The notes beneath the pieces were generated by a model that saw only the letters and a list, made by a program, of their open reading frames with translations, was not told the origin of the DNA and searched no databases. Of a stretch of DNA of 64,000 nucleotides, positions 5,496-56,271 are shown piece after piece. Position numbers and translations under genes: made by a program. The DNA is from Candidatus Heimdallarchaeum aukensis. GTDB taxonomy: Archaea > Asgardarchaeota > Heimdallarchaeia > Heimdallarchaeales > Heimdallarchaeaceae. The stretch is taken from the NCBI GenBank assembly GCA_021513695.1, contig CP084166.1, forward strand, positions 2,176,001 through 2,240,000, given 5' to 3'. The first letter of the stretch is position 1. Every line of letters begins with the position of its first letter.

Positions 5496-6749
5496 TTATT
5501 TTGAGCCTAAGAACTTAGCCTTTTCTCCTAATTGTTCTTCTATTCTTAAAAGTTGGTTATATTTTGCAGTTCGTTCTCCTCTTGCCGGAGCACCAGTTTT
5601 TATTCTTTCTGCGCGAATAGCGACAGATAGATCGGCAATAAAAGTATCTTCTGTTTCTCCAGACCTGTGACTTATATTAATTCCCCAACCATCACTTCTT
5701 GCTAACTCTGCTGCCTTAATTGCTTCTGTTAAAGAGCCTATTTGATTGACTTTTAATAACAAATAATTAGCAGCTTTCTCTTTAATTGCCATCTTAATAC
5801 GTTCAGGATTTGTCACAGTTAGATCATCAGCAACTATTGATATTGATGGATGTTTTTTCAAAAGCTCTGCAAAAGATGTAAAGTCATTTTCATCGAATGG
5901 ATCTTCTAAGGATATAAGAGGATACTTTGTAATTAGTTCGCTATAGTAATCAATAAGTTCATCACTTGGGATTTTCTTTCCATCAATTTCATATAGACCA
6001 TTTTCATAAAACTCTGAAGCTGCAGCATCAAGACCTAGTGAGATTTCAGTTTTTGGTTCATATCCAGATTCTTCAATAGCTTTAATTAACATATCAATGG
6101 CTTCTGGTGCAGTATCAACAGGACTACCAAAACCTCCTTCATCACCCAAATTTATTGCTGATGGACCAAACTTTTTCAAATTCTTTTTTAGTGTTTGATA
6201 TACTTCACAAGATGAACGGAGAGCTTCTCGGAAACTTTTAAAACCATGAGGAATAAGCATGAATTCTTGTATCTTTAAGTTTCCCCCAGCATGTTTTCCT
6301 CCATTAATTACATTTAACATTGGAACAGGTAAAGTATATGCTTCACTGTTTAATGATTTATAAAGAGGTAACTTTTTACTATTGGCTGCTGCTACAGCAA
6401 CGGCTAGTGATACTCCCAAAATAGCGTTTGCACCTAATTTTGATTTGTTTGGTGTTCCATCAAGTTCTAACATTAACTTATCTATCTCTTCTTGTTTTGT
6501 GACTTCATAACCAATAATTTTTGGAGTAATGATCTCTTTAATATTGTTTATGGCTTTTAAAACTCCTTTTCCATGAAAACGGGAATCTTTATCTCTCAAC
6601 TCAAGAGCTTCATGTTCTCCAGTAGACGCACCCGATGGTACTTTAGCTCTTCCAAAAGCTCCGTTGTCACAATATATATCTACTTCAACAGTGGGGTTTC
6701 CACGGGAATCAATTATTTCTCTAGCAATAATTCTTTCAATTTTTGACAT
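5496..6749 (-). CDS. eno: Enolase (phosphopyruvate hydratase)
   Basis: The 417-aa ORF starts [24 protein letters not shown]... and contains SHRSGETED and [13 protein letters not shown], which are canonical enolase motifs. Confidence 0.95.
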
Positions 6750-6841
6750 GTATTAAAATTGATAAGCTAAAAATTAAAGTCTTTTGATTAATTTCCTTTT
6801 TAGTCAAACAGTTTAATAATGTTTAATATATTTTTAAACCA

Positions 6842-7846
6842 ATGAACTTTAAGAAAAAACTTAAGTTAAGTGATATCGGAGAAAAACAGTTCTTAAAAGA
6901 AATCTTTGCATATATTGATACCCCTTCTGTGCTTGAAGTAAATGATGACGCTTCAGCTTTTTCCATTTCAGAAAATAAAGTTCTCTTAATTAATGCAGAT
7001 ATGCTTGTGTCTGAAACAGATGTATTGCCCGGCACCTCTTTAAAACAAATAGGGAAAAAGGCAGTAACTATGTCAGTTAGTGATATAATTGCTAAAGGTA
7101 CTTTTCCTCTTGCTTGCCTTGCTAGTGTTTGTTTTCCACCCTCGCTAGATGTAACTGATGCAAATGAAATATTAATTGGAATTAAAGAAATGGCAACGGA
7201 GTACAATTCTCTTTTCTTAGGAGGAGACTTAAATCAAAGTAATGACATTATAATAGATATAATTTCATTTGGAATAACTCAACCTAATAATGTTATACCA
7301 AGAAAGGGTGTAGAACCAGGAGATGTTCTATTTACTACAGGAACATTTGGGTGGACAGCGCTGGGGTTTAAGATCCTTCTAGAAAATATGTGTGTGGAAG
7401 AAGAATATAAAATTAAATCACTAAAATCTGTCTATGAGCCAAGAGCAAAATTGGAATATGTAAAATTATTTGAATCTCTTCCAATTAAAGCAAGTATTGA
7501 TTCATCAGATGGGTTATACTCCTCAATTTATGAGCTATTATCTATTAATAATCTAGGATTTTCTTTAACTCATCTTCCAGTAGACAAAAATTTTGTTTCT
7601 TACTGTGAAAAAAAAGGGCTCAATCCCTTGGAACTTGCAATGAACGGTGGAGAAGAATTTGAAATATTATTTGCTGTTGACAAAAAAGATAAGGATAGTT
7701 TAATAAAAGAAGCAAAAAGAATGAATTTATCTCTGATAGAGGTGGGATATTTCACCTCTAACCCCTTAGAACTAAATATTGAAGATAAACTAGGCGAAAT
7801 TTACTCGTTTAGCAAAAAAGGTTTTATTCATTTCAAGAAAAGTTAA
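6842..7846 (+). CDS. AIR-synthase-related (PurM-like) protein, likely thiamine-monophosphate kinase ThiL
   Basis: The 334-aa ORF aligns motif-by-motif with ThiL: EVNDDASAF ~ GIGDDCALL, KKAVTMSVSDIIAKGT, FLGGDLNQS ~ LIGGDTT, SIDSSDGLYSSI ~ AIDLSDGL. Confidence 0.5.
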   Translation: MNFKKKLKLSDIGEKQFLKEIFAYIDTPSVLEVNDDASAFSISENKVLLINADMLVSETDVLPGTSLKQIGKKAVTMSVSDIIAKGTFPLACLASVCFPPSLDVTDANEILIGIKEMATEYNSLFLGGDLNQSNDIIIDIISFGITQPNNVIPRKGVEPGDVLFTTGTFGWTALGFKILLENMCVEEEYKIKSLKSVYEPRAKLEYVKLFESLPIKASIDSSDGLYSSIYELLSINNLGFSLTHLPVDKNFVSYCEKKGLNPLELAMNGGEEFEILFAVDKKDKDSLIKEAKRMNLSLIEVGYFTSNPLELNIEDKLGEIYSFSKKGFIHFKKS

Positions 7847-7949
7847 ATTTTTTATTGCTCATTTGTAAACCTCAGTAATCCAATTAGTTGTTCAAAATCA
7901 AAATATTTAAAATAAAACTTTTATCACTCGTACTTGGTTGTGATAAGAT

Positions 7950-8363
7950 TTGAGTACGAAGAGATATAGATTTCAAGGCTATACAATAGATGAATTAAAA
8001 GCAATGGCTTTAGATGAAGTATTACCACTATTACCTTCAAAAAGAAGAAGAAGCCTTTCAAGAGCAGAGTTCTGGACACCTAGACGAAAGAAATTATTAG
8101 AGGATATCAGAGAAGCTGCTGAAGCTTTACAACGTGGAGAAAAGAAAATTGTTAGAACCCATGTTAGAGATTTTCCAATTATCCCTGAGATGATAGGATT
8201 AACTATTGCCGTTTACAATGGTAAAGAGTTTATAGAAGTCTTAGTTCAGCCAGAAATGATTGGAATGGTCTTAGGTGACCTAAGTCCAACAACAAAAGTA
8301 GTAAGGCATGGAGCTCCTGGTATAGGTGCTACAAAATCATCATTATATGTTCCACTTAAATAA
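7950..8363 (+). CDS. rps19: 30S ribosomal protein uS19 (S15e)
   Basis: The 137-aa ORF ends ...VRTHVRDFPIIPEMIGLTIAVYNGKEFIEVLVQPEMIGMVLGDLSPTTKVVRHGAPGIGATKSSLYVPLK, the hallmark C-terminus of S19/S15e. The start appears to be TTG. The gene is isolated from any S10/spc-type cluster. Confidence 0.85.
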   Translation: MSTKRYRFQGYTIDELKAMALDEVLPLLPSKRRRSLSRAEFWTPRRKKLLEDIREAAEALQRGEKKIVRTHVRDFPIIPEMIGLTIAVYNGKEFIEVLVQPEMIGMVLGDLSPTTKVVRHGAPGIGATKSSLYVPLK

Positions 8364-8490
8364 CTTTTTACTTTCTTCTTTTCTAAAAGCGACAAAATTG
8401 GAAATTCTGGCAATTTATTTGAAATACTTTTTGTATATTTTTGTTTTTCGAGATTAATTTTAAAAGTGAGCTAGATATTGTAAGCTTATA

Positions 8491-8871
8491 ATGGTTCCGC
8501 CAAAAGAAGATGAATATACAGATAACCCAAGGTTAACTAAGGCTTTTAAACGATTAGAGAAAAAATTGACCATTGAAATACTCTTTCTTTGGGTGATTAG
8601 ACTTTTAAAAGATGGTCCTAAATATGCATATGAACTAAAACAAGAATTTCAAGACCGTTTTGGTTTTAGTCCTGCCACTGTAACAAATTATACTGTATTG
8701 TATCTATTAGAAAAAGAGGGTATAGTTAAACGAACCGAAGTTGTAGTAGATGATGAAAGAATTGATAGAAAATATTATGCATTAACAGAGTTAGGCGAAA
8801 AATTGTTTGATGAGTGCAAAATCTTTTTAGAGAATACATTTTCAGTCTTATTCTCTGACCTAAAGTCTTAA
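8491..8871 (+). CDS. PadR-family winged-helix transcriptional regulator
   Basis: The 126-aa ORF contains GPKYAYELKQEFQDRFGFSPATVTNYTVLYLLEKEGIVKRTEVVVDDERIDRKYYALTELGEKLF, the PadR signature (GYEL...G.lYP.L..LE..G...). Confidence 0.6.
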   Translation: MVPPKEDEYTDNPRLTKAFKRLEKKLTIEILFLWVIRLLKDGPKYAYELKQEFQDRFGFSPATVTNYTVLYLLEKEGIVKRTEVVVDDERIDRKYYALTELGEKLFDECKIFLENTFSVLFSDLKS

Positions 8872-8946
8872 ACCAAAATCACGAATAAACAGATTTTTAA
8901 ATATTCTCTCTTTTTTTTGCTCGATGACAATGCAGGTGATTTTTTA

Positions 8947-9225
8947 ATGCCAAAAAAGAGACGATCTGGAGGTAGAACAAGAGGGAAAAAAGGTATAGGA
9001 ACCCAAGTATCTTGTGCTGCTTGCGGACAACTTGTAGAAAAATCGAAAGCAAAGAAGTTTACCACTTATTCAAGTGGTATAGAATACAAGTTAGCCAAAG
9101 AAATACAAAGTGAAGGTGGATACATACCACGACAGAAGAAAGTTCAATATTATTGTGTTTCTTGCGCTATACACCGTCATAAAATTCGACCAGGTAGAAA
9201 AAGAGAAGAAAGAAAACGCAGATAA
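8947..9225 (+). CDS. rps26e: 30S ribosomal protein eS26
   Basis: MPKKRRSGGRTRGKKG...VSCAACGQLVEKSKAKKF...YYCVSCAIHRHKIRP is the S26e zinc-binding signature. The start is taken at MPKK rather than the upstream in-frame 8917. Confidence 0.85.
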   Translation: MPKKRRSGGRTRGKKGIGTQVSCAACGQLVEKSKAKKFTTYSSGIEYKLAKEIQSEGGYIPRQKKVQYYCVSCAIHRHKIRPGRKREERKRR

Positions 9226-9286
9226 TTGTTTTTCTTCAATTTTCTGCCTTTAACTTTGATCGATTTTTCTTTATTTCTGCATTTTT

Positions 9287-9892
9287 TTGGTGATATTCTT
9301 GGATAAATCATTAATATTTCTTCTACCCACTTTCTCCGTAAGGTGTACAGAGAAAAAAAGTTTGAAAGCGTTAACTGGCGGATTTGAAAGAGTAGATGTT
9401 TTAGCTCGTTGTTTGTTAAGCACTTTTAAGTGGAAACCGAGATTAAATTTTGATGTTATTTTTATGATATACTTTGCACATTCTGAAGAAAAAAAACTTT
9501 TACAGATAAAATTGTCAGATATTAATAGAAACATAGTAAGTGAGGTTGATGCTTTAGGCACATTGATAGATATTCTTAACAACGCTGTAAAAGAAAATAA
9601 ATTTGAAGAAATTTCGTTTAAAAAACTTTTAAGTTCTATATCTAAAAAACACTATGAACTTTTTTATCTAACCTCTGAAGGTCAAAAAATAGGCGTTGAA
9701 TTAAAGAGCGATGATTATGAAAAAAATTTGTGTTTTATTCTCGGGAGTCAGGATGATTTATCTTCTGATCAAGAAACCATCTTAGAAGCACTTAAAGCCA
9801 GGAAAATTAGTCTGGGCAATAAAGAATATCTCGCTTCTCATGTAATAACTATAGTCTGCCATCACCTCTCTTTGTTAGAGAATTTATCCTAA
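9287..9892 (+). CDS. SPOUT methyltransferase, TrmY-like (tRNA pseudouridine54 N1-methyltransferase family, DUF358)
   Basis: The 201-aa ORF contains GGFERVDVLARCLLSTF and a C-terminal ...YLASHVITIVCHHLS, resembling the TrmY/DUF358 core (GR.DL..RC...). This was recalled from memory, not searched. Confidence 0.45.
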   Translation: MVIFLDKSLIFLLPTFSVRCTEKKSLKALTGGFERVDVLARCLLSTFKWKPRLNFDVIFMIYFAHSEEKKLLQIKLSDINRNIVSEVDALGTLIDILNNAVKENKFEEISFKKLLSSISKKHYELFYLTSEGQKIGVELKSDDYEKNLCFILGSQDDLSSDQETILEALKARKISLGNKEYLASHVITIVCHHLSLLENLS

Positions 9893-9952
9893 CTTTCTTC
9901 TAGTATCCTTCCCAAAAGATATAAAGCACACAACCTTATCTAAAAACAACAA

Positions 9953-10777
9953 ATGAATGCTAATGATATAACTGTTTCTCAAAAATTAAAAAAATTAAAA
10001 CAAGAACTACAACTCATATTATCTGTTATGAATGAGGCCTATCAATTATTTCATGATCAAATCAATAAAGGACTTCAAACAAAATATAAAGCAGTTGATG
10101 ATCCAGTTACAATCTTGGATCTACTAATTGATGAATTTCTAAAAAGAAAACTTTTGACATTATTTCCTGATTACGGATGGTTATCTGAAGAAACAAAAGA
10201 TGATATAAAGAGATTAGAAAAAAAACAAGTTTTCATTGTTGATCCAATTGATGGAACAAGAGAATTAATACTCGGTTTACCAGAATATGCAATATCAGTA
10301 GCATTAGTTGAAGATAACTACCCAACTATTGGTGTGGTTTTAAATCCTGCAACAGGAGAAATTTATTATGCAATTAAAGGTTTTGGGGCTTTTCTGAATG
10401 GTAAACAAATTACTACTAGACCACATTCAGAAAATAAACCAATTATTATAGTTAGTCGTTCTGATGAGAAAAAAGGTAAATTTGAATTCTTAAAAAACAA
10501 AGCAGAAATCATGCCAGTTGGTTCAAGTGCTTATAAACTCTCACGATTAGCAAAAGGAGACGCAGATGCTGCTCTCACATTTCACCCTATGCATGAATGG
10601 GATATTGCTGCAGGTTTGTTAATTGCAGAAGAAGCAGGAGCAATTGTAACTAGTGTTGATGGAAAGAGTTTCACTTTTAATCGTTCTATAAACACTAAAA
10701 TAGACTCTTTTCTCGCAGTAACAAAAGAAAAAGAAAAAGAAATTAAACAGTTATTAAAGTATAAAAAAGAGAATTAG
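9953..10777 (+). CDS. Inositol-monophosphatase family protein (archaeal IMPase/FBPase-type)
   Basis: The 274-aa ORF contains WLSEET, FIVDPIDGTRE and WDIAAGLLIAEEAGA, the IMPase metal-binding and catalytic motifs. Confidence 0.75.
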   Translation: MNANDITVSQKLKKLKQELQLILSVMNEAYQLFHDQINKGLQTKYKAVDDPVTILDLLIDEFLKRKLLTLFPDYGWLSEETKDDIKRLEKKQVFIVDPIDGTRELILGLPEYAISVALVEDNYPTIGVVLNPATGEIYYAIKGFGAFLNGKQITTRPHSENKPIIIVSRSDEKKGKFEFLKNKAEIMPVGSSAYKLSRLAKGDADAALTFHPMHEWDIAAGLLIAEEAGAIVTSVDGKSFTFNRSINTKIDSFLAVTKEKEKEIKQLLKYKKEN

Positions 10778-11973
10778 AAGAAGGTGGGCTCATCTTCAAA
10801 AGTTCTTTTTGGAGTTTCCATTTCCATTGTTTCGCTTGCTGAAAGAATCTCAATTAATTCATAGGCTGAAGTCCCCATATTCATTTTTTCTCCCACCTGA
10901 ACGACCTCATAAGGATCCTTATATGGCCCATGTACCCTTGTGAAGGGGTGTAAATCTGGTGTTGTAAGATCTATATGCTTGATATAGGGAGGAATGTTTT
11001 TTTCGATTAATCCTTCTTTTTTTATTAAATCCAAGGAGGCGGTTTCAATAGCAATTATATCAGTTGAACCAAGAACACCAATATCATTAACTATGGGTGG
11101 TTGTCCCATTCCAAGACAATCACAATAAGTTGTAATATCTAGAAGAAAATTCATGAAGAAAACTTTTTCCTTGTCAAAGCTTTTAAGCACCTCATTAGCA
11201 GCTATTGCCATCATTTCTTGGAAAGCACTATAAGCTTCTCTTGGTAATTTTACAGCTCCAAGCCCTTGATCTATTTCTAAACATCTCATGCATTGATGAC
11301 AATCATGATAGTTCCTTCGTAGTTTATGTTTCTCCTCATTATAACTTAATGCGTGATATGGACATTCAGCAACTAGTTTTTTTGCTAATTCTGGAGTAAG
11401 TTTGTCTGGGTCATACATATCGTAAGCGTAATTTACTCCATGTATCTTTTTCCAACGTGTAGGCCCGGAATATCCTCCAAGAGCTAAGTTTTTTATTGCT
11501 CCACCGAAACCACACGCTCCATGCCCCTTAACATGAGATAAATCAACAAGCACATCTGCATCTTCAAGAGCCCCTGCCATACTTAAACTATCAACGTTTA
11601 GGAAATCTATTTTTTTCTCTTTGACATAGCCATCCTTTACCCCTGAAATAGGTATAATAGGGCATCCACATGTGTATTCAGTGTACCCACGATTAACTGC
11701 ATTATAAACTGAAGTGGGGTTATCAGTAATAAAAGGATAAGCACCTGTTTTTTTGATTCTTTCAACTATTCTTCTGACAAAAAAAACAGGAATTGTCTGA
11801 TAACCATCTCTAAATCCCAAATGCATTTTTATTGCTACTTTATCTTTTTTTTCAATTTTTATTTCTTCGATTAGTTTTTCAGTAATTATATCTACTTTTG
11901 CAGCAAAAGAAGCAAAACGAGCCATTTGACCTTGTTGAATTGAACCAAAATAAACCTTAGCTTTTTCTGACAT
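10774..11973 (-). CDS. DUF362-domain protein with an embedded 4Fe-4S ferredoxin-type motif
   Basis: The 399-aa ORF contains KGHGACGFGGAIKNLALG (the DUF362 core) plus CHQCMRC...CPYHAL (CxxCxxC...CP). Confidence 0.55.
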   Translation of the reverse strand: MSEKAKVYFGSIQQGQMARFASFAAKVDIITEKLIEEIKIEKKDKVAIKMHLGFRDGYQTIPVFFVRRIVERIKKTGAYPFITDNPTSVYNAVNRGYTEYTCGCPIIPISGVKDGYVKEKKIDFLNVDSLSMAGALEDADVLVDLSHVKGHGACGFGGAIKNLALGGYSGPTRWKKIHGVNYAYDMYDPDKLTPELAKKLVAECPYHALSYNEEKHKLRRNYHDCHQCMRCLEIDQGLGAVKLPREAYSAFQEMMAIAANEVLKSFDKEKVFFMNFLLDITTYCDCLGMGQPPIVNDIGVLGSTDIIAIETASLDLIKKEGLIEKNIPPYIKHIDLTTPDLHPFTRVHGPYKDPYEVVQVGEKMNMGTSAYELIEILSASETMEMETPKRTFEDEPTFF

Positions 11974-12082
11974 ATTATTCTTTACTCTTTTTCTTTAATA
12001 AACTCTTCGATAAATATTGTTTTTTAACGAAATTCTATATTGAAGAATATTAGATAAAAAATAAAAAGAATGAAGAAATAGT

Positions 12083-12661
12083 TTAAAAAGCTAACTTTGA
12101 GCCACAGTTAATGCAAAATTGAGCATCTTCTGGATTTTTGTGACCACAAAAAGGACAATAATATTCAATTTTTGTATTGTCTAATGATGCAGCAATTTGC
12201 TCTGCATGATGTTTGGTTGGGATCTTACTAAACACATCACTTTTTTGATATTGAACATTTTCTCCAAGTAACACCTCACCAGATTGTGCATCATACTTAT
12301 ATTGAAGTTTGCCCTTTATCCTTAAATGAAATAAAATTCTTATTAGTTCGTTTTCTCTTATTCCCAATTCTTTTGACATCGTTTCAATTCTAATTTTGTT
12401 GCTTGTTTGAGTAGAGATATACGCAAGAACCGCGTTTCTCATTCGATTATCATTAATCATTTCACTAATTGTTCCAGTAAACATAAAGAATGCAGGGATA
12501 AAAAGCCAGTAACCCCAATTTCTTAAACCAATAAAGTCAATATTCATCTTTTGAAAAATTAGTGAGAGTATTCCGACAGATGTGAAAAATAATGCTGTAC
12601 TTAGTGCAGAATAATTGCCTTTATAGCTCTTTTTGTAATAGTATCTAACTTTTGTCATCAA
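12083..12661 (-). CDS. Membrane protein with a C-terminal zinc ribbon
   Basis: The 192-aa ORF has 2-3 N-terminal TM helices and a C-terminal YYCPFCGHKNPEDAQFCINCGSKL. Confidence 0.4.
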   Translation of the reverse strand: MMTKVRYYYKKSYKGNYSALSTALFFTSVGILSLIFQKMNIDFIGLRNWGYWLFIPAFFMFTGTISEMINDNRMRNAVLAYISTQTSNKIRIETMSKELGIRENELIRILFHLRIKGKLQYKYDAQSGEVLLGENVQYQKSDVFSKIPTKHHAEQIAASLDNTKIEYYCPFCGHKNPEDAQFCINCGSKLAF

Positions 12662-12716
12662 GCTTAATAGTTATATCATTCTAATAAACGTTGACTTTTG
12701 GAAAAAAGAAAAAGAG

Positions 12717-14582
12717 CTAAATTCTTCTATCTATAAAATCTAACATCGCTTTGAATGTCCTGATTCTAAAATTGGGGTCACTGTATCCTCCATGACCAAT
12801 ATCACCAAACTCTATGTATTCATATGTTTTGCTCCCTTCTTTTCCTTCTCTCCACCCATTTCCCTTCAATTTTTCAATAAAAACTCTTGCTTGTGAAATA
12901 GGGCATCGAGGGTCGTTTTTTCCATGAATTATTAATAATGGACAACTCAAGTTTTGGGCATAATTAACAGGAGAACGCTCTTCATACAGTTTACTCTCCT
13001 CACTTGGTTTTCCTAAAAGTGAGTGCATATAATACTTAAAGTGGGGCATACTTTCGTTATATAATAATTTCCAATCTGTTATTCCTACTGACGCTACCCC
13101 TAATTTCCACATATCTGGCTTCTTTGTCGTTGCTAGATAAGTCATGTAACCCCCATATGAAGATCCAAAAATGCCAATTCGATTCTTATCAACAAATTCT
13201 AAACTTTTCAGATACTCTGCTCCAGCTACAATATCTTCTAAATCACCTCCACCTATGTCTTTGACGTTAAGTTCCCTAAATCGTTTTCCATATCCTGTAC
13301 TCCCGCGAAAATTAGGTCGTAAAAGAACATAACCTTTATTCACTAGTATTTGTGAAAAAATACTAAATGTTCTTAATACTTGAGCTGTTGGCCCTCCATG
13401 AACCTCAATGAGTGCTGGAAGTTTTTCACCTTTTTGAATATTTTTTGGTTTGTATAGAATTGCTCCTATAGTTAATCCGTCTTTGGAACGGTACTCAACA
13501 TATTCGTCCTCTACAAAAATTGATTTGTCAATTTCACCAATGTGGGCTGGTATAAGTTCCATTATTTCCTCATTTTCCAAATTATAAGAAACTAATGAAC
13601 TTGGGGACGTAGATGAATTTAATCTCAAAATAAGGTTTTTTCCATCAGCTGTTAACTTTGGTCCTGATACTACTCCAGGCGGAAAGTTTAGTGCCAGCTC
13701 TTCTCCTGAATCAATTCTATAAATTACAGGGCGAATGGTTGCCTTATAATTTCGAAGAGCAATTAAATATTTATTATCTCTTGAGATTTCAACAGCAAAT
13801 TCCTCGTATTTATTATCACCAAAAAATATTGATTCTTCAGTTTCAATATTAAAAATTCCTGCTTGAATATTACCTTTATAATCTGAAGAAATAGCTAAAA
13901 GTTTCCCATCTTCTGAAATATCACTTATTCCTTCCCTAGATCCTTCTCCTTTACTCAAAAGTTTCCTTTGTTCTGAACCATCAGTATTCATGATCCAAAC
14001 ATCAAGATTCTGCATGTTTTTTGTGTCATTATAGCCAAAAATAATAAAATCGTTTGTAGGAGACCATTTTATTCCTCCCATAACAGGTTTATTAAATCTG
14101 GTCAATTCAGTTACTTCTTTACTATTAAGATCTAATCTAAAAAGATTCATCTGACCGTTTCGAGTACTCCTAAAAAGCAAATATCTTCCATCAGGGCTTG
14201 TATCGACAGCATGTTCTTGAAAATTGGGTGTATCTGTTAATTGCTTTACTTCTTTTGTTGTGACGTTTAAAACAAAAAGATCATGTTTTTCATTACCATC
14301 TTTATCTTTTGCAAAGATTATCTCTTCGTCATTTCTTGTCCATACATATCCAGAACGAGGAGTCTTAGGTAATTCTCCTTCTGTTATTTGTTGAAGCTTC
14401 TTTGTTTCTAAATCTAAAAGATAGAATTCAACTCTGCCTGTTTTATCCCAGTAAAAAGAAACTTTATCTTTTGAATTATTTAACTTTACAAAAGAAAATT
14501 GAGGAATTCGGGATAATTTTTCCAAAATTTTCTCTAACATACTTGCATTGCTTATTATCTGTTGAAAAGTTTTTTTATTCAT
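12717..14582 (-). CDS. S9 family serine peptidase (prolyl oligopeptidase/acylaminoacyl-peptidase type) with an N-terminal beta-propeller
   Basis: The 621-aa ORF has an N-terminal WD40/TolB-like repeat region. The C-terminal alpha/beta hydrolase has GSSYGGYMT (the nucleophile elbow GxSxG) and downstream Asp and His (GDIGHGG). Confidence 0.75.
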   Translation of the reverse strand: MNKKTFQQIISNASMLEKILEKLSRIPQFSFVKLNNSKDKVSFYWDKTGRVEFYLLDLETKKLQQITEGELPKTPRSGYVWTRNDEEIIFAKDKDGNEKHDLFVLNVTTKEVKQLTDTPNFQEHAVDTSPDGRYLLFRSTRNGQMNLFRLDLNSKEVTELTRFNKPVMGGIKWSPTNDFIIFGYNDTKNMQNLDVWIMNTDGSEQRKLLSKGEGSREGISDISEDGKLLAISSDYKGNIQAGIFNIETEESIFFGDNKYEEFAVEISRDNKYLIALRNYKATIRPVIYRIDSGEELALNFPPGVVSGPKLTADGKNLILRLNSSTSPSSLVSYNLENEEIMELIPAHIGEIDKSIFVEDEYVEYRSKDGLTIGAILYKPKNIQKGEKLPALIEVHGGPTAQVLRTFSIFSQILVNKGYVLLRPNFRGSTGYGKRFRELNVKDIGGGDLEDIVAGAEYLKSLEFVDKNRIGIFGSSYGGYMTYLATTKKPDMWKLGVASVGITDWKLLYNESMPHFKYYMHSLLGKPSEESKLYEERSPVNYAQNLSCPLLIIHGKNDPRCPISQARVFIEKLKGNGWREGKEGSKTYEYIEFGDIGHGGYSDPNFRIRTFKAMLDFIDRRI

Positions 14583-14782
14583 TTATAATTCAATCCCTTC
14601 CAATAATTTGTTCAATAATTTTGTAATTATTATTGAATATAAAAACGGAACAATTTCTTTGGATTCATTTCTTTCTGTAAAATGGGGCTAGGCTTTGGAA
14701 AACTTCGTTACAAAAATTTTTATAGTAGTGCCGTTGTTTAACTCTCAACCGTTATATCTATTTCATCTATGGTGTTATTATT

Positions 14783-17700
14783 ATGTTAGCTAATGTAGGG
14801 ATCAATATAGGTTCTGTGTCCGTAAATTTTGTTTTCGTAGACACAGATGGAACAATCCATAAATGTAAAAAACCTCATATGGGAAAACCACAAGAAGTAT
14901 TAACTGAAATTATTAAAGAGAATATTCCTGAAAGCAAAAAGTGCGCTTTTGCTACTTCTGGGTCTTTTGGTAACATATCAGAGATTGCAGCTATTGAGAG
15001 AGGGTTAAAATCATATCCTGATGAAAAATTTGATATTGTTTTATCTTTAGGTGGAGAATCTTTTGTTTTATATGTTATAGATGAGGAAAATAATATTGTT
15101 AATATTTTATCGCATGACAAGTGTGCTGCTGGTAGCGGAGAATTTTTCCTTCAACAGATAGGTAGGTTAGGTCTGTCCTTAAATGAGGCAATAGAACGAG
15201 CAAAAAATGGAAAAAAAATTCAGTTGGCCTCTCGCTGTTCAGTTCACTGTAAATCTGATATAACTCATAAGTTAAATAAGGGTGAAGCATCGATCGATGA
15301 TATCCTTACTTCTGTTTTATCAAGTATGGTGAATAAAGTCTTACATCTAATTATGCAATCGCGAGTGAACGTGAAAAGATTATTAGTAATTGGAGGAGTA
15401 ACTCTTAATGATACTTTTGTTCAACTATTAAGGGAGGAATTACCAGATGTTGATGTTGTAATCAAAGATGTAAGTAGTGTTTTTGAAGCATATGGAGCAT
15501 CATTAATGGTTAGTGATAATCCTCTATCATTTCCAAACAAACCTGTATTAAAAACAGAAAAAAGTTTTGCAACTCTTCCTCCATTAAAAGAATTTAGAGA
15601 GCAAGTAACAATCATAGAACCTAAACCTCCAAAAACAGATTTTGATGAATCGACAATATTTGTATTAGGTGTTGATGTTGGTTCTACGACAACAAAAGCC
15701 GTTTTAATGGATTATTCGGATAATGAAATTGTTGCTTCCTATTATGGTCGAACTCAAGGGAATCCAGTAAACGCGGCAAAGAAGTGTATTACAGAAATAA
15801 TAAAACAAGTCGGAAATCAAAGGGTACAGTTGATTGGTGTAACTGGCTCTGGCAGACAAATTGTTGGCGCTTATCTGGGCACTCCAGCTATATACAATGA
15901 GATATCAGCTCATTCAACAGGTGCAGTTCATTTTGATGATGAGGTTGATACAATTTTCGAGATTGGAGGACAAGATTCAAAATATATGCTAATTAAAAAT
16001 GGAGTTCCTATAGATTATGCGATGAATGCAAGTTGTTCTGCAGGAACAGGTTCCTTTTTAGAAGAATGCTCAAAAGGAGATCTAGGAATATCTGTTTATG
16101 ATATCGCTTCTGTAGCAATGCAAGCAGAAAACCCTGTTCGTTTTAAAGCTGATTGTGCTGCTTTCATAAATTCAGATATTCGTACTGCTCTTCAAGAGGG
16201 GTATAGCCGTACAGATATAGTAGGAGGTTTAGTTTACTCTATTGTAAATAATTATGTTGAAAAAGTTAAGGGGTCGCGAGAAGTAGGTAAAAAGATCTTC
16301 TTTCAAGGAGGAGTTGCTAAAAACACATCTGTGGGTTACGCATTTGCACAAGCAACTGGAAAACATATTATTATACCTCCAAATCCCGAATTGGTGGGAG
16401 CTTTTGGTGTTGCACTAATTGCAAAAGAGAAGTATGAACTTAATGAAATTGGATTAATGCCAGAAAATACTTCTCTTGAGCATCTTATAAAAGAAGAAAT
16501 GAAGCATCTTGGACATTTTATTTGTAAAGCTTGTAACAACTATTGTCAAATTGAGAGATATGAGGTGGGTGGTAGGCGCTTTCCATTTGGAGGACGATGT
16601 AGTAGGTATGAACACCAATGGCGTAGAACTGAAAAAATAAAAGAGAAAGAGGATTTAGTTCAAAAGAGAAATGACCTCATTTTTGAAAATGTTATAGAAG
16701 AGACAAAAACAAATACAAATACTGAGAAAATAGGTATACCTCGAGCATTGTTAACTCATAGCCTTTTCCCTCTTTATTCTACTTTCTTCAAAGAAATTGG
16801 TTTTGAAGTTGTTCTCTCATCCATTGATGAAGAAAAAGAATTGTTAACTAATGCTCCATTCTGTTATCCAGTTCAAATTTTACACGGAGCAGTAAATGAT
16901 CTAATCAAAAAGGGAATAAAATTAATATTTTTACCACATATCAGAAGTTTGCCAAAGAATAAATCCTGGTTTGATTCTACTTTCTGTCCAATAACACAAG
17001 GAAGCTCCTATTATATTCCTACAACGTTTTCTCCAGTTGAAATACTGAATCCAGTATTAGATTTTGAGGAAGGATACGAATACGATACTTCATTAGTTGA
17101 TTATGTCGTGAAAAAACTTGGTATACCAAAGTCCAAAGCTAATCGTGCCTATATACATGCCGTAAAAAAACAAAAAAAGGTTGAACAACAATTTATTGAG
17201 TGGGGAAAAGAAGCACTTAAGAAACTAGACGAAACAAATGAAACAGCTATAGTGCTAGTCGGAAGAAGTTATAATGCATTTCCACCTGAAACATCACAGC
17301 TGATTCCAAAAAAACTGGCAAGTATGGGTGTAACTGTTATTCCTTTCGATTTTCTTGAAAAAGTAGAAAGCGAAGAAGACATTCCTTGGTACTTCATCAA
17401 TTATATTAACATTGCTGCAGATCTTGTACAAAAGAAGAAAAACTTGTTTTTATTATATATTACAAACTTTAGTTGTACCATTGATGGATTTAATCAACAA
17501 CTAGTAAGAACAAAGATGAAATCTAAACCCTATTTGATATTAGAGTTAGATGCCCACACAGCTGATGCGGGAACACAAACTAGACTAGAAGCTTTTCTTG
17601 AGATAATTAAAAATTATCGGGCTGTAGAAAAGCAAGAAGAAGAAAAAGAGTTTAAAGTTTGTCAAGTCAAAAGAAGAAATGGAAAAACTGTTGTTTTCAC

Positions 17701-18970
17701 TTCAAAAGGTGAAATGTTAAGCATTAGAGACCCAAGAGTAAAACTTTATTTTCCAAGTTTTTCAAAATACCATACTGATGCTTTAAGTAAAGTCTTTAGT
17801 CTCCTAGGTTATAATACAGGTAAAGTTACAGATATTAGACTAGATTATCCTGTAACTGGATTACAGTACAGTTCTGGAAAAGAATGCATACCTCTGGCGG
17901 TTGTTTTAGGACATATTTTGCATTTAGTTAAACAAAGAAAGCCAGGAGAAGTAATAGGCTATTATATGATCAGAGGTGGGTCACCTTGTGCTGTTTATAG
18001 TTACTTCCATTATATTGAGCGATTTCTGAAAGAAAATAAGATAGAAGATGTATTTGTTTTCAGATTTGACTACCTTACAAACTTTATGGATACTAGTTTA
18101 TTGGATGTCATGCGTTACTTTCCACAAACACTCATAATTGCTGATTTGATGAATGAGATAGAAAGTGCTCTTCATGTGGTAGGGGATGAGAAAGGTTTAG
18201 AACAATTACATAGTTATTGGAAAGAATATCTAACAGAAGCCAATACGTTAAAGAAATACAAAAAACTTGTTCCTAAACTAGTGGAAAAAATAGCCAGTAT
18301 TGAACGCAAGGGAGATCCTAAAACTTATTCAAAAGTACTAATAAGTGGAGATTTTTATGTTCGTTTTAGTCCATTTTTCATTGGAGAACTAAGGGATATG
18401 TATAAAGTACATGACATTATTGTGAAATCGCATGATCTGTGGGAACTTGTTCTTTATAGTGTTTACAGCACAAAAATAGCTATTGCACAACGATGGAAAA
18501 AAGGTCCAAATAAATTTTCAACCTTAATATATGCATTTTCGAAAATATTTGACAAAAGGGCGCAAACTTATCTTCTCTGCATTTTCTCTATTCCACTACT
18601 TGAATGGATTGAAAAGAGACAACGAAAGGCATTTAGAAAAACGGGTTTACTATACGCTGGTGTTAATAAATTAAAACCCATTTTCCGCTTCTCGAAACCA
18701 TATATCAGTCCATTAATTGTCGGAGAAGCAATACCTACTGTAGGAAAAGGAATCGAAACATTAACACATAATGGGTATGATTCTTTAATTTTAACAGGTC
18801 CAATGAATTGTTTGCCTTATAAAGTCTCTCAAGCAATATTAAAGCCAATATTTCTGGAGAACAGAGTACCTTTCTTAGTCTTTGATGTGGACATCTCTTC
18901 TATGTCAACAAACATGAAACGTTTAGTGCATGCAAATATAGAACAGATAAAAAAGAGAAATATAAATTAG
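14783..18970 (+). CDS. Giant fusion protein: two BadF/BadG/BcrA/BcrD-type ATPase (HgdC-like activase) domains plus a 2-hydroxyacyl-CoA dehydratase-like (HgdB/DUF2229-like) C-terminal module
   Basis: The 1395-aa ORF has a first ATPase domain (GINIGSVSVNFVFVD...DKCAAGSGEFF) and a second (LGVDVGSTTTKAVL...SCSAGTGSFLEE...FFQGGVAKN), then a Cys cluster (CKACNNYCQ...GGRCSRYE). The long C-terminal region has dehydratase-component-like topology. Confidence 0.6.
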   Translation: MLANVGINIGSVSVNFVFVDTDGTIHKCKKPHMGKPQEVLTEIIKENIPESKKCAFATSGSFGNISEIAAIERGLKSYPDEKFDIVLSLGGESFVLYVIDEENNIVNILSHDKCAAGSGEFFLQQIGRLGLSLNEAIERAKNGKKIQLASRCSVHCKSDITHKLNKGEASIDDILTSVLSSMVNKVLHLIMQSRVNVKRLLVIGGVTLNDTFVQLLREELPDVDVVIKDVSSVFEAYGASLMVSDNPLSFPNKPVLKTEKSFATLPPLKEFREQVTIIEPKPPKTDFDESTIFVLGVDVGSTTTKAVLMDYSDNEIVASYYGRTQGNPVNAAKKCITEIIKQVGNQRVQLIGVTGSGRQIVGAYLGTPAIYNEISAHSTGAVHFDDEVDTIFEIGGQDSKYMLIKNGVPIDYAMNASCSAGTGSFLEECSKGDLGISVYDIASVAMQAENPVRFKADCAAFINSDIRTALQEGYSRTDIVGGLVYSIVNNYVEKVKGSREVGKKIFFQGGVAKNTSVGYAFAQATGKHIIIPPNPELVGAFGVALIAKEKYELNEIGLMPENTSLEHLIKEEMKHLGHFICKACNNYCQIERYEVGGRRFPFGGRCSRYEHQWRRTEKIKEKEDLVQKRNDLIFENVIEETKTNTNTEKIGIPRALLTHSLFPLYSTFFKEIGFEVVLSSIDEEKELLTNAPFCYPVQILHGAVNDLIKKGIKLIFLPHIRSLPKNKSWFDSTFCPITQGSSYYIPTTFSPVEILNPVLDFEEGYEYDTSLVDYVVKKLGIPKSKANRAYIHAVKKQKKVEQQFIEWGKEALKKLDETNETAIVLVGRSYNAFPPETSQLIPKKLASMGVTVIPFDFLEKVESEEDIPWYFINYINIAADLVQKKKNLFLLYITNFSCTIDGFNQQLVRTKMKSKPYLILELDAHTADAGTQTRLEAFLEIIKNYRAVEKQEEEKEFKVCQVKRRNGKTVVFTSKGEMLSIRDPRVKLYFPSFSKYHTDALSKVFSLLGYNTGKVTDIRLDYPVTGLQYSSGKECIPLAVVLGHILHLVKQRKPGEVIGYYMIRGGSPCAVYSYFHYIERFLKENKIEDVFVFRFDYLTNFMDTSLLDVMRYFPQTLIIADLMNEIESALHVVGDEKGLEQLHSYWKEYLTEANTLKKYKKLVPKLVEKIASIERKGDPKTYSKVLISGDFYVRFSPFFIGELRDMYKVHDIIVKSHDLWELVLYSVYSTKIAIAQRWKKGPNKFSTLIYAFSKIFDKRAQTYLLCIFSIPLLEWIEKRQRKAFRKTGLLYAGVNKLKPIFRFSKPYISPLIVGEAIPTVGKGIETLTHNGYDSLILTGPMNCLPYKVSQAILKPIFLENRVPFLVFDVDISSMSTNMKRLVHANIEQIKKRNIN

Positions 18971-19543: not shown

Positions 19544-21340
19544 TTATAGAAGATAAAATTCAGTAGCCCAAAGGATTCCATTATCATCCTCAATATAGGT
19601 ATACTTTATGTTGTCACCCACATCTGTTAAAACAACATCGTTCCAGTGAGTCTCATTTAAATAGTCTCTAGAACAACGGATTGTTCGACTATCATTCAGA
19701 GAAAAAACAAAAATGCTATTGCCGTCCTTAACATAAGTTCCTACTTTTTCAACTTGAGCGTAATTATAAATTTCCTCTGGTTTGTTTCCTGAAAAGAAAG
19801 ATTTGTAAGTCAATCTTGCTTCTTTTACTGCCTCTGAACCTGTTAATCCTTCAGCATTGGTTATGGCAATATAACTTGTTTCCTTTGCATCTAAAATACA
19901 TATGTGTGATAACCTTTGAACTGTTCCACTTTCCCAGTAAATGGGAATGAACCAAACTAGTCTATTACCTAGAGAAGTATTTAATGTGAATGGAACTGGC
20001 ATTTGGACAATGTAACTTCCTTCATTAGGAACAGTTAACTGGCCTTTTGCAATTTGAGCTGCAGTACTAGCAGAAATAAACCCTTCATTGCGTAAATCAT
20101 AAAAAGTAACATTTGTTTTTGTAACTACTCCAATTCCTGCAAGAGTTTCAGGAGCGTTAAGAGGGTGAGTTGCAAAAAAAGCGAAACTTGAGTTTTTACG
20201 AAAAACATAACGTATATCTTCCACTCCTTCACCATAGAAGCCAATTCTATCAGGACTATAATTAGGAAAACCGCTGAATAATCTTATATTGTCAGGAGCA
20301 CTAAGGTCTCTTTTAATACCCCATTTTTTGATCCAGTAATCTTCTAGAAGAGTTTCAGAGTAAACTTGGAGAACATAGTCAGGTGTTTGCCCAAGTTCTT
20401 CTGGTCCATAATGCTTAATTAAATCTCCTGTTCTTATATCAACTATATCAACACCATCAGAATACCAAGCCCCATAAATGTTACGTGTGGTACGTGTGAC
20501 AACATAAACCCACTTTTCTCCAGTCCAAGCGGGATATGAGCGATAATATTTAGCAGTTTGACTTCTGCGATAAGATTTAAGGTTGACATTATGGTTACGC
20601 CAAAGATCCTCTGCGTAATTGAAGGTTCCATCAGGAAATTCAATAATAATGGGCTCGGCATTGGGATTATTTACGTCGATGAGAATTAAACCTAAAACCT
20701 TATTGAACAAACCCGGTTGCCAAAATTGCGCACTAAATCGAGGGGCGTAAACAATACACCAATAAAGTGTATTATTAACTAGGATTACGTTAGCTTGGAT
20801 ATACATAACATTTGAGCCAAAGATGGCTTTATTTTGTTCAGCTCGGCTAATAGCAAATTCTTTTGTGACTAATCTTATAGAGTTATCTATTTCTCTAACT
20901 TCATCTGAAACAATAAACGGTAGGGTTGAATATTCTACTGTTACCATCTCTTCAAAAGTTCGTGCACTTTGAAGTGTCTTGTTGATATTTAATAAAGAGT
21001 TTAGCAAAATTACCGTAATAATAATAAAAACAAGAGCAGAAGTAATTTTTTTCCTAAATCTTCTACGAGTAGTCAATTCGTTTATTATTTTTCCAGTAAA
21101 GAGTTCAAAGATAATAACGAGTATAATGTTGATCGTTCCTACAAGGATTAAATGCTCGATTGCTCCTGCATATATTGTCCTAGCAATAAAACCAAAAACC
21201 CAAACAAAAAACAACAAAATACAATAAAAACCTATGGCCATTCCTCCAAGTGTGCTATTCTTCTTGTAAAGACGAACGACTATCCAAAGTAAAGGAAGAT
21301 AAGCTAAAAAAAGTAAAAGCGTTATACCAATATATGACAT
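19544..21340 (-). CDS. Large membrane protein (N-terminal TM bundle plus a large extracytoplasmic domain), function unknown
   Basis: The 598-aa ORF has about 4-5 N-terminal TM helices and a roughly 450-aa soluble C-terminal region. No recognisable catalytic motif was seen. Confidence 0.4.
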   Translation of the reverse strand: MSYIGITLLLFLAYLPLLWIVVRLYKKNSTLGGMAIGFYCILLFFVWVFGFIARTIYAGAIEHLILVGTINIILVIIFELFTGKIINELTTRRRFRKKITSALVFIIITVILLNSLLNINKTLQSARTFEEMVTVEYSTLPFIVSDEVREIDNSIRLVTKEFAISRAEQNKAIFGSNVMYIQANVILVNNTLYWCIVYAPRFSAQFWQPGLFNKVLGLILIDVNNPNAEPIIIEFPDGTFNYAEDLWRNHNVNLKSYRRSQTAKYYRSYPAWTGEKWVYVVTRTTRNIYGAWYSDGVDIVDIRTGDLIKHYGPEELGQTPDYVLQVYSETLLEDYWIKKWGIKRDLSAPDNIRLFSGFPNYSPDRIGFYGEGVEDIRYVFRKNSSFAFFATHPLNAPETLAGIGVVTKTNVTFYDLRNEGFISASTAAQIAKGQLTVPNEGSYIVQMPVPFTLNTSLGNRLVWFIPIYWESGTVQRLSHICILDAKETSYIAITNAEGLTGSEAVKEARLTYKSFFSGNKPEEIYNYAQVEKVGTYVKDGNSIFVFSLNDSRTIRCSRDYLNETHWNDVVLTDVGDNIKYTYIEDDNGILWATEFYLL

Positions 21341-24202: not shown

Positions 24203-24320
24203 GCCGCGATAGCTTAGTCGGTAGAGCATTCGGCTGTTAATCTTAAGATTTGAATGCACTACGGGTGCGCAAGAGCAGCGCACCGAAAGGTCGTAGGTTC
24301 GAGTCCTACTCGCGGCGCCA
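24203..24320 (+). tRNA. tRNA-Asn(GUU) with a canonical 37/38 intron of about 42 nt and encoded CCA
   Basis: Acceptor GCCGCGA/TCGCGGC, D-arm GCTT-AGTCGGTA-GAGC, anticodon stem TTCGG/CCGAA, loop CTGTTA|intron|A, T-arm GTAGG-TTCGAGT-CCTAC, then G-CCA. Confidence 0.75.
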
Positions 24321-30256: not shown

Positions 30257-30377
30257 TGGAGCCCTGGGCGTGATTTGAACACGCGACAACTGGATTGCTG
30301 CACAAGTGCTGAAACAATTTAGTTTTTCAGCGTTTTTGGTTCTTCAGTCCAGCGCTCTCCCGCTAAGCTACCAGGGC
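30257..30377 (-). tRNA. tRNA-Phe(GAA) with a roughly 46-nt intron at 37/38 and encoded CCA
   Basis: Reverse complement: GCCCTGG-TA-GCTT-AGCGGGA-GAGC-G-CTGGA-CTGAAG[intron]A-TCCAG-TTGTC-GCGTG-TTCAAAT-CACGC-CCAGGGC-T-CCA. Confidence 0.75.
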
Positions 30378-49067: not shown

Positions 49068-49862
49068 ATGTCTGAAGAAGAAAAAACAGTTCAATATAAA
49101 AAAGTAGGTAAAAATAACAATGTAATTCTTATTACTTTTCACAGGCACAAAGATCTAAACGCGTTCAATTCGCAAATGTTGGAAGAATTTGAGGAAGTTT
49201 TGTTAAAAATAAAACAAGAAAAAGATATTCGTTGTGTAATTATCACTTCTGAAGGTAAATCATTTGTAGCTGGTGCAGATCTTAAATGGATGTCCACACT
49301 TAATGAGGAAAATTATAACAATTTAATTGCTAAAGGACAAGAAGTTTTTGAATTAATTGAATCTTTGCCAATTCCTGTAATTGCTGCAGTAAATGGATAC
49401 GCTTTAGGAGGAGGAATGGAACTTTCTTTAGCGTGTGACATTAGAATTGCTAGCTCAAAAGCAGTTTTCGGACAACCAGAAGTTACATTAGGTTTACCAC
49501 CAGGATGGGGAGGAACGGTTCGTTTACCCCTTATCGCAGGATTAGGTGTAGCAAAAGATCTTATTCTTACTGGTAGAAAAATAAGTGCTGATGAAGCTCT
49601 AAAACTAAATATAGTTTCTGCAGTTTATCCTCCAGAAGAATTACTAGATAAAGCTTTAGAACTTGCAGAAACGATTGCATCAAATGCTCCTATTGCAGTA
49701 AGAGAAGCAAAAAAAGTTTTTACATCAACATTTCAAGAGAAAGTTAAAGAGGGATACCGAAAAGAACAAGATGCAGCAAAACCATGTTTTGCATCAAGTG
49801 ACTTAAAAGAAGGAATTGATGCATTGTTTAACAGAAGAAAACCAGAATTTAAAGATAATTAA
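49068..49862 (+). CDS. Enoyl-CoA hydratase/isomerase (crotonase) family protein
   Basis: AVNGYALGGGMELSLACDIRIAS is the crotonase oxyanion-hole signature. Confidence 0.75.
   Translation: MSEEEKTVQYKKVGKNNNVILITFHRHKDLNAFNSQMLEEFEEVLLKIKQEKDIRCVIITSEGKSFVAGADLKWMSTLNEENYNNLIAKGQEVFELIESLPIPVIAAVNGYALGGGMELSLACDIRIASSKAVFGQPEVTLGLPPGWGGTVRLPLIAGLGVAKDLILTGRKISADEALKLNIVSAVYPPEELLDKALELAETIASNAPIAVREAKKVFTSTFQEKVKEGYRKEQDAAKPCFASSDLKEGIDALFNRRKPEFKDN

Positions 49863-54108: not shown

Positions 54109-56271
<2,163 letters not shown>

Follow-up and report, generated by a model that had tools for sequence, protein, structure and literature searches.

A PlsA/Ger-family activase-reductase fusion encoded in the genome of Candidatus Heimdallarchaeum aukensis

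A 64,000-nucleotide stretch of the genome of the Asgard archaeon Candidatus Heimdallarchaeum aukensis (contig CP084166.1, positions 2,176,001 to 2,240,000; hereafter the window) contains a gene (14783..18970, plus strand) whose product carries on one polypeptide what the best-studied systems of this kind divide among separate proteins. This raises the question of whether the fusion is real, to which family it belongs, and on what substrate such a protein would act. An initial annotation of the DNA described a double HgdC-like activase followed by a Cys-rich linker and a HAD/BCR-like module, regarded the fusion as unusual, and considered the substrate to be unknown. Judged from its sequence, the protein is a genuine single-chain fusion of an ATP-driven activase and an iron-sulfur reductase, and it belongs to the known PlsA/Ger family. 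As such it is an uncharacterised member of a described enzyme family and not a new type of enzyme. It is most likely a self-contained, oxygen-sensitive, ATP-dependent Fe-S reductase, and the function that we favour, with moderate confidence, is the ATP-driven reduction of the sn-1 acyl ester of a glycerolipid to an ether.

The gene is one uninterrupted open reading frame (ORF) with an ATG start, encoding 1395 amino acids (aa); its end coordinate counts the stop codon. The translation is 100% identical to the deposited protein of this species named 'acyl-CoA dehydratase activase', which is encoded on a 3.08 Mb contig, and the protein database holds more than 100 homologues that are full-length at about 1400 aa and collinear with the Heimdallarchaeum protein. 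Because the ORF is intact, the deposited protein identical and the homologues collinear, a misassembly of two adjacent ORFs, which the initial annotation had named as a possible objection, is ruled out. A candidate TATA-like sequence, TTTTTATAG, was noted by eye at 14717-14725, 58 nt 5' of the start codon. GC content is about 32%, and the genome, described in the initial annotation as small, is not especially so at ~3.1 Mb. Two long tRNA genes and a gene for glycerol-1-phosphate dehydrogenase, all within the window, support its archaeal origin.

The Pfam family BcrAD_BadFG (PF01869) matches the protein in two stretches (1.1e-56), as does the NCBIfam model CoA_E_activ (4.4e-73). C-terminal to the activases, DUF2229 (PF09989) is matched over its entire profile by residues 649-857 (1.5e-55), and residues 877-942 match HGD-D (PF06050) at 30.6 bits (3.3e-07), just over the gathering score of 28.4. 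The latter match comprises only a 66-residue tail of a 342-position profile, and the Pfam scan gave no further HGD-D or DUF2229 match within residues 940-1395. The initial annotation had read the anatomy of the protein correctly, with two HgdC-like activases, a Cys-rich linker and a HAD/BCR-like module on one chain.

Members of the family have been validated by heterologous expression, both as two-gene and as single-gene forms. The C. perfringens proteins PlsA and PlsR (CPE1194/CPE1195) are the anaerobic plasmalogen synthase described by Jackson et al. in 2021; we recovered the plsA-plsR operon from a metagenome contig by means of the gene-specific part of a published cloning primer. The glycerol ester reductase Ger of T. 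maritima (Tmari_0479), a 'modified PlsA', contains two PF01869 domains and one PF09989 domain followed by small PF06050/PF09989 hits, an architecture written BBDHDDH, of which the 'BBD' core is common to all alkyl-ether producers (Sahonero-Canavesi et al. 2022, Sci Adv, PMC13159169). Anoxic E. coli expressing either T. maritima Ger or its D. alkenivorans homologue formed 1-O-alkyl glycerol monoethers, and Ger is sn-1 specific and is described as restricted to anaerobes and active only without oxygen (PMC13159169). The same publication had already listed both Heimdallarchaeota and Lokiarchaeota, P. syntrophicum among the latter, as having Ger homologues. Single-gene PlsA proteins of E. faecalis, L. 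cremoris and B. longum subsp. suis give rise to plasmalogens in E. coli (PMC12838417). The Ger sequence used here, AGL49404.1 (MSB8), was reached by a protein-database search with a Thermotogae homologue from the genome scan, and the same accession is given for Ger elsewhere (bioRxiv 10.64898/2026.06.23.733905). For E. faecalis plsA the published forward primer had no exact match in the genome collection searched, and D. alkenivorans Ger was not named among the best 120 matches to a Desulfobacterales homologue.

The Heimdallarchaeum protein aligns with Ger in one collinear segment of 1,377 columns (36% identity, 55% positives, 788 bits). In BLASTP comparisons with C. perfringens, residues 1-942 match PlsA (29% identity, E=7e-97) and residues 1026-1385 match PlsR (22% identity, E=2e-8), in the same order as PlsA then PlsR. 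Identity to Ger and to PlsA plus PlsR, respectively, amounts to 34.6% and 27.6% in activase domain 1, 56.1% and 35.2% in domain 2, which is the region most like Ger, 37.5% and 16.7% in the linker, 37.9% and 26.7% in reductase half 1, and 21.6% and 17.6% in reductase half 2, the least conserved region. Overall the values are 36.1% and 25.3%, while Ger and PlsA/PlsR share only 25.0% with each other. T. maritima Ger showed no HGD-D match at E<=0.1 in our own Pfam scan, and because a validated enzyme itself lacks this match, the C-terminal HGD-D and DUF2229 hits are threshold-dependent as a criterion of membership. With PlsA/PlsR and Ger validated and the Heimdallarchaeum protein collinear with both, the substrate class can no longer be called unknown at the level of the family. 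Nor is the fusion itself unusual: searches with the reductase module gave 2,265 cluster representatives at E<=1e-3 (334 at E<=1e-30), and earlier work had already grouped archerase-reductase fusions of 420-1800 aa into a large sequence cluster within the FldB/C family (PMC7317905).

A labelled neighbour-joining (distance) tree with bootstrap divided the homologues into five groups. Subfamily I holds the Heimdallarchaeum protein within an Asgard clade of Heimdall, Gerd, Thor, Loki and Kari members (bootstrap 100/100), located beside Nitrospirota, Opitutaceae, Terracidiphilus and a second 'Heimdall' group; the subfamily as a whole is likewise recovered at 100/100. Partial matches from Thermoanaerobaculaceae and Gemmatimonadota have identities in the range of subfamily I and were left out of the trees. 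Subfamily IIa consists of Thermotogae, including the validated Ger, with Desulfobacterales, Bacillota, Methanosarcinales and Nanoarchaeota; subfamily IIb of Spirochaetes, Smithella, Myxococcota, Leptospira and the eukaryote Anaeramoeba; and subfamily III of Brocadiia, other Planctomycetota and Zixibacteria. C. perfringens PlsA/PlsR forms the most distant branch of the tree. Because subfamilies I and II together form a clade in 100/100 neighbour-joining bootstraps, the Heimdallarchaeum protein branches off the path that joins Ger and PlsA/PlsR. Identity across the Asgard phyla is 55-65%.

Several features of this distribution are of separate interest. Within subfamily I, the second 'Heimdall' group lies next to the bacterial members, on their side of the subfamily. 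The homologues of Methanosarcinales and Nanoarchaeota belong to IIa, a subfamily of bacterial type distant from the Asgard clade, and this placement suggests more than one independent acquisition of the gene by archaea. The bacteria of subfamily I include Nitrospira, Terracidiphilus, Opitutaceae and Gemmatimonadota, which are usually regarded as aerobic or microaerophilic; their presence deserves attention given the description of Ger as an enzyme of anaerobes only. Additionally, the anaerobic eukaryote Anaeramoeba flamelloides encodes a full-length fused homologue (KAJ3428733.1, 1491 aa, ~34% identity) with all 14 of the Cys described below. Its gene is on an 11.8 Mb contig, and another contig encodes an almost identical protein that has an accession of its own. 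Eukaryotes can thus carry the enzyme, although the Anaeramoeba copy groups with the bacterial proteins of IIb and not with the Asgard clade. Among the papers searched, none mentions Anaeramoeba together with plasmalogen.

Fourteen Cys of the Heimdallarchaeum protein are invariant (positions 114, 152, 418, 458, 581, 584, 588, 606, 694, 735, 898, 1035, 1069 and 1343). They are grouped as 2+2 in the activases, four in the linker and 3+3 in the reductase halves. Their invariance was first seen in an alignment of Asgard, bacterial and C. perfringens sequences; it extends to ~70 full-length cluster representatives with identities as low as 26%, and all 14 are present in both validated enzymes, T. 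maritima Ger and C. perfringens PlsA/PlsR. In HgdC the two Cys of each ASKHA domain are ligands of a bridging [4Fe-4S] cluster, and the two Cys motifs of the Heimdallarchaeum activases align and are invariant in both domains, as in activators of the HgdC/HadI type. In PDB searches, domain 2 matched activases of known structure (HadI, HgdC, MbdQ and DCCP-R; E=2e-31 to 4e-22), and its two Cys motifs aligned with theirs. When domain 1 was searched by itself, HadI was matched at E=5.6e-17, along with DCCP-R, HgdC and MbdQ/P. The four linker Cys are invariant in three alignments (21, ~70 and 42 sequences), down to 25% identity. The linker is beta-rich in the predicted model, with lower model confidence (pLDDT about 54-71), and PDB sequence searches gave no match for it among solved HAD/BCR chains; it is a candidate for a relay [4Fe-4S] or other metal site.

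The reductase module resembles known catalytic subunits in its predicted fold far more than in its sequence. For residues 551-1395 of the model, the matches at the top of the list were exclusively catalytic subunits of HAD, BCR and DCCP enzymes, the nearest solved folds being HadBC, BzdNO and MbdON. However, a 57-sequence profile searched against the PDB found activases only and no HAD/BCR catalytic chain, the best hit being a DCCP tail at E=1.4; the catalytic halves are missed because they are too diverged. The proposed likeness of this module to HgdA/B and BcrB/C therefore holds at the level of the fold, and barely so by sequence, where it comes down to the HGD-D tail. The cluster Cys that the initial annotation proposed to look for in this region are retained as the 3+3 set. 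A role of the C-terminal region as a non-catalytic scaffold is ruled out by the fold and the invariant Cys. Subunits of this superfamily carry either an [8Fe-9S] double cubane held by six Cys, as DCCP and BzdN do, or a [4Fe-4S] cluster held by three Cys with one iron left open, as HadB, HadC and BzdO (Cys95/128/380) do (PMC7317905; PMC11971306). Going by the count of three invariant Cys per half, the pattern here is HAD-like and not that of a double-cubane protein, and the Cys spacing of half 2 (34/274 residues) is close to that of BzdO (33/252). The two halves align weakly with each other, with C694/C1035 and C735/C1069 in register (hhalign E=0.0095, probability 4%). This is how an old alpha/beta duplication would look, and it lends weak support to such an origin of the halves.

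The two activase domains differ in their ATPase motifs. Domain 2 is canonical (GVDVGSTTTK and EIGGQDSK), whereas domain 1 has G-I-N-I-G-S-V-S-V in place of the canonical G-x-D-x-G-S-T-T-x-K, and S-L-G-G-E-S-F in place of E/D-x-G-G-Q/E-D-x-K. The same holds for all 110 full-length close homologues, in which domain 1 reads G-[IV]-N-I-G-[SA]-[VL]-[ST]-V and S-L-G-G-E-[SA]-F, and domain 2 reads G-x-D-x-G-S-T-T-T-K and E-I-G-G-Q-D-x-K (110/110 in each case). Domain 1 thus keeps both of its cluster Cys but lacks the acidic residues at phosphate-1 and phosphate-2, which would be needed for Mg-ATP hydrolysis in an ATPase of the ASKHA fold. Domain 1 is probably a non-hydrolysing partner of domain 2. 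T. maritima Ger is likewise degenerate in domain 1 (GVCIGSSSV, SAGGENTI), and since the activity of this enzyme is proven, conversion of esters to ethers can go together with a degenerate domain 1.

Comparison of the subfamilies showed that the phosphate-1 position of domain 1 is occupied by Asn in subfamily I, by Cys in IIa including the validated Ger, by Asn or Asp in IIb, where the second motif is degenerate too, and by Asp in III and C. perfringens PlsA. In the last two both ATPase domains are canonical, and domain 2 is canonical throughout all groups. A pseudo-ATPase domain 1 is therefore ruled out as an Asgard novelty, as bacterial members of subfamily I share it and IIa has an Asp-to-Cys form. 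The state of the phosphate-1 position could serve as a marker of mechanism or product type, in a comparison of alkyl and vinyl ether enzymes that has one validated sequence of each kind.

Set beside the characterised systems, the Heimdallarchaeum protein is most like Ger. Both are single chains of ~1400 aa whose parts come in the same order, with all 14 Cys and a degenerate domain 1, both are encoded by stand-alone genes, and both have an extra Cys in a 'CSV[HF]CKSD' motif. They differ in subfamily (IIa for Ger, I for the Heimdallarchaeum protein, both well supported), in the phosphate-1 residue (Cys against Asn), in reductase half 2, and in host, in this case an archaeon with glycerol-1-phosphate dehydrogenase and reportedly without 1-acyl-glycerol-3-phosphate acyltransferase (PlsC). 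C. perfringens PlsA/PlsR shares the domain order, the collinearity and all 14 Cys, yet is encoded by two genes, has two canonical ATPase domains, forms a vinyl ether, and is only 25% identical overall as the most distant branch. HadBC with HadI, HgdAB with HgdC, BzdNOPQ and MbdONPQ are sets of separate proteins acting on coenzyme A (CoA) thioesters, in contrast to the fused Heimdallarchaeum protein, and their catalytic halves have no detectable sequence similarity to it beyond the 66-residue HGD-D tail. The invariant four-Cys linker and the absence of a CoA-metabolism context further set the Heimdallarchaeum protein apart from them. DCCP/DCCP-R of Carboxydothermus hydrogenoformans (PDB 6ENO, 7YYL) has a 7-Cys motif with six [8Fe-9S] ligands per subunit (PMC7317905), as opposed to three invariant Cys per half.

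The main argument for reduction of an sn-1 ester is that in the distance tree the protein is bracketed by two validated enzymes that reduce sn-1 esters. A saturated 1-O-alkyl ether, the product type of Ger, would be a more probable product than the vinyl ether of PlsA: the protein is closer to Ger (36%) than to PlsA (25%) and shares the degenerate domain 1, again with one validated sequence per kind. The architecture, the fold, the invariant Cys and the collinear homology are observed; the cofactors and electron path that we infer begin with a low-potential donor, which, by homology to HgdC and HadI, would reduce a [4Fe-4S] cluster held between the fused activases by C114/C152 and C418/C458. 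Binding and hydrolysis of ATP would then power an 'archerase' conformational switch that pushes the electron uphill, and because domain 1 has lost the catalytic Asp/Glu, only domain 2 could drive this switch. From there the electron would be relayed via the four-Cys linker to two three-Cys clusters of the [4Fe-4S] type (694/735/898 and 1035/1069/1343). Going by Cys count, spacing and fold, each of these would leave one iron open, as in HadB/HadC and BzdO. The ester carbonyl would bind the open iron, and one-electron reductions via a ketyl-type radical, with protonation and dehydration, would lead to an alk-1-enyl ether, which Ger-type enzymes would further reduce to the alkyl ether, following the scheme of the PlsA/Ger literature. 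For PlsA, the proposed scheme consists of two sequential one-electron reductions, protonation and dehydration (summarised in PMC8788747).

A number of points weigh against reduction of a canonical glycerolipid in this host. We know of no characterised member of subfamily I, whether from Asgard archaea, Nitrospirota, Opitutaceae, Acidobacteriota or Gemmatimonadota. The identity to Ger is 36% overall and falls to 21.6% in reductase half 2, and Ger and PlsA are not yet separable by primary sequence (PMC13274423). A gene for glycerol-1-phosphate dehydrogenase (EgsA), an enzyme of the archaeal lipid backbone, lies 12 kb upstream of the PlsA/Ger-like gene. Both Heimdallarchaeum species are reported to be without PlsC in the genome paper that described the organism (Wu et al. 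2022, PMC8813620), and only archaeal isoprenoid lipids were found in the sole cultured Lokiarchaeon analysed, although a 2026 paper holds that the method used on the Lokiarchaeon could have missed ester lipids. In P. syntrophicum MK-D1 (CP042905.2, locus excerpt 6161-16089) the orthologue is located directly after genes for a thiolase, a 199-aa ORF, an acyl-CoA dehydrogenase and a MaoC dehydratase, and precedes two CoA-transferase subunits on the opposite strand. Given the reported lack of PlsC, the presence of EgsA and the detection of isoprenoid lipids only in the Lokiarchaeon, the presumed substrate may be scarce or different in Heimdallarchaeum, and for these reasons our confidence in the canonical function is no more than moderate. 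PlsY/PlsC orthologues do occur in some Asgard genomes, and another Heimdallarchaeote has both PlsC and PlsY; none was found among the ~50 annotated ORFs of the 64-kb window.

An enzyme of the same chemistry might instead act on a different ester, such as a 1-acyl-glycerol-phosphate made by PlsY alone, of glycerol-3-phosphate or glycerol-1-phosphate (G1P), or some other acyl ester. The resulting 1-O-alkyl(enyl) glycerol phosphate could enter a hybrid archaeal/bacterial lipid. In addition to the reported lack of PlsC, such a substrate would be in keeping with the sn-1 specificity of Ger, with the divergence of half 2 and with the separate, fully supported clade of subfamily I; moreover, PlsY and PlsC accept both stereoisomers of glycerol phosphate, going by the title of PMC13400652. 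However, all the catalytic-looking residues that could be compared, namely the 14 Cys and their flanking motifs, are common to the Heimdallarchaeum protein and the validated enzymes, and no direct evidence points to any alternative substrate. We treat a different ester as a tentative possibility, well behind the glycerolipid ester. On a similarly speculative footing, the Asgard enzyme would be an anciently acquired and vertically kept ether-forming reductase that acts on mono-acyl or otherwise non-canonical glycerol esters, possibly of G1P, where PlsC is absent.

Turnover of a CoA thioester, by a fused enzyme like the 2-hydroxyacyl-CoA dehydratases or the enoyl/aryl-CoA reductases in fermentative acyl-CoA metabolism, appears unlikely. 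The nearest solved folds, HadBC, BzdNO and MbdON, do all act on CoA esters, the 3+3 Cys are the HAD pattern, and the surroundings of the MK-D1 orthologue, as listed above, would be fitting for such an enzyme. Yet a neighbourhood of this type is missing from the window and from seven other Asgard and two bacterial loci, where the neighbours are wholly different and form no fatty-acyl-CoA cluster, and because of these differences the acyl-CoA linkage of P. syntrophicum cannot be regarded as conserved. The fatty-acyl metabolism genes of MK-D1 would suit a lipid role equally well. Furthermore, similarity to HAD/BCR catalytic chains is undetectable by profile, as against 36% identity to Ger over the full length. 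No genes for CoA-transferases or 2-hydroxyacid metabolism were found beside the gene in the window, the P. syntrophicum locus being the only one with a CoA-transferase context; absence of such neighbours is to be expected of a protein whose validated relatives take membrane glycerolipids, rather than CoA thioesters, as substrates. Least probable by far is a reductase of the DCCP type, for a small molecule or unknown substrate, or else a decaying, non-functional gene. Three invariant Cys per half do not make up the 6-7-Cys double-cubane motif, and although domain 1 is degenerate, the degenerate form is itself highly conserved and is present in the validated, active Ger. The identity maintained across Asgard phyla, together with the 14 invariant Cys, argues for purifying selection.

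Should the Heimdall enzyme reduce glycerolipid esters to fatty-alkyl or -alkenyl glycerol ethers, a single gene would be enough to take Asgard archaea from bacterial-type ester lipids to ether lipids, and the archaea most closely related to eukaryotes would be producing such lipids beside their isoprenoid lipids. This would offer a concrete biochemical route to 'hybrid' membranes, bearing on the 'lipid divide', on the origin of the eukaryotic membrane and on the transition from archaeal to bacterial lipids in eukaryogenesis, and would add archaeal sources of the ether lipids used as environmental biomarkers. The idea of such ether lipids in Loki- and Heimdallarchaeota has already been raised in published work. 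What is added here is that the Asgard proteins and those of certain bacteria form their own subfamily, apart from those with the validated Ger and PlsA; that a 14-Cys signature marks the whole fused family; that one ATPase domain is degenerate in the Heimdallarchaeum protein and the validated Ger but not in C. perfringens PlsA; and that the gene neighbourhood gives no clue to function.

With respect to this last point, no synteny was conserved among the nine Asgard and two bacterial loci compared. A stand-alone gene in variable contexts fits with a single Ger or plsA gene being sufficient in E. coli. The coordinates of the gene, its parts and other features of the window are listed in Table 1. 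Neighbours in addition to those listed are genes for a zinc-ribbon protein, a DUF362 protein, an inositol monophosphatase and a HAD-superfamily hydrolase, and the 570-bp gap between the PlsA/Ger-like gene and the 598-aa ORF contains no credible ORF. The distant crotonase gene mentioned in the initial annotation does exist (49068-49862), 30 kb away.

Table 1. Parts of the PlsA/Ger-like gene and other features of the window
Feature	Position	Strand	Basis or remark
PlsA/Ger-family single chain, whole gene: two activases, four-Cys linker, two HAD/BCR-like reductase halves	14783..18970	+	ORF, homology
Activase domain 1, residues 1-285	14783..15637	+	ASKHA/HgdC-type fold; C114, C152
Activase domain 2, residues 286-560	15638..16462	+	Best Pfam BcrAD_BadFG stretch, 295-547; PDB matches; C418, C458
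Cys-rich linker, residues 576-612	16508..16618	+	C581-x2-C584-x3-C588-x17-C606
Reductase half 1, residues 641-945	16703..17617	+	DUF2229 and HGD-D tail; C694, C735, C898
Reductase half 2, residues 991-1395	17753..18967	+	Counterpart of the separate C. perfringens PlsR; C1035, C1069, C1343
NAD(P)-dependent glycerol-1-phosphate dehydrogenase (EgsA)	2206-3276	+	NCBIfam NF002022, 415.9 bits against an equivalog cut-off of 413
S9 peptidase	12717-14582	-	Neighbour of the PlsA/Ger-like gene
598-aa ORF converging on the PlsA/Ger-like gene	19544-21340	-	No Pfam/NCBIfam match; N-terminus hydrophobic by eye
tRNA gene, 115 nt	24203-24317	+	Rfam
XPD/Rad3-type helicase, 795 aa	24528-26915	+	DEAD_2, HBB, Helicase_C_2; N-terminal PD-(D/E)XK nuclease-like region
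tRNA gene, 118 nt	30260-30377	-	Rfam
DNA gyrase B	54157-56271	+	
DNA gyrase A, 1269 aa	56282-60091	+	Intein with LAGLIDADG homing-endonuclease domain, about residues 76-515

Among the remaining features of the window, neither the 115-nt nor the 118-nt tRNA gene was called by ARAGORN under bacterial settings, and both are read as intron-containing tRNA genes.

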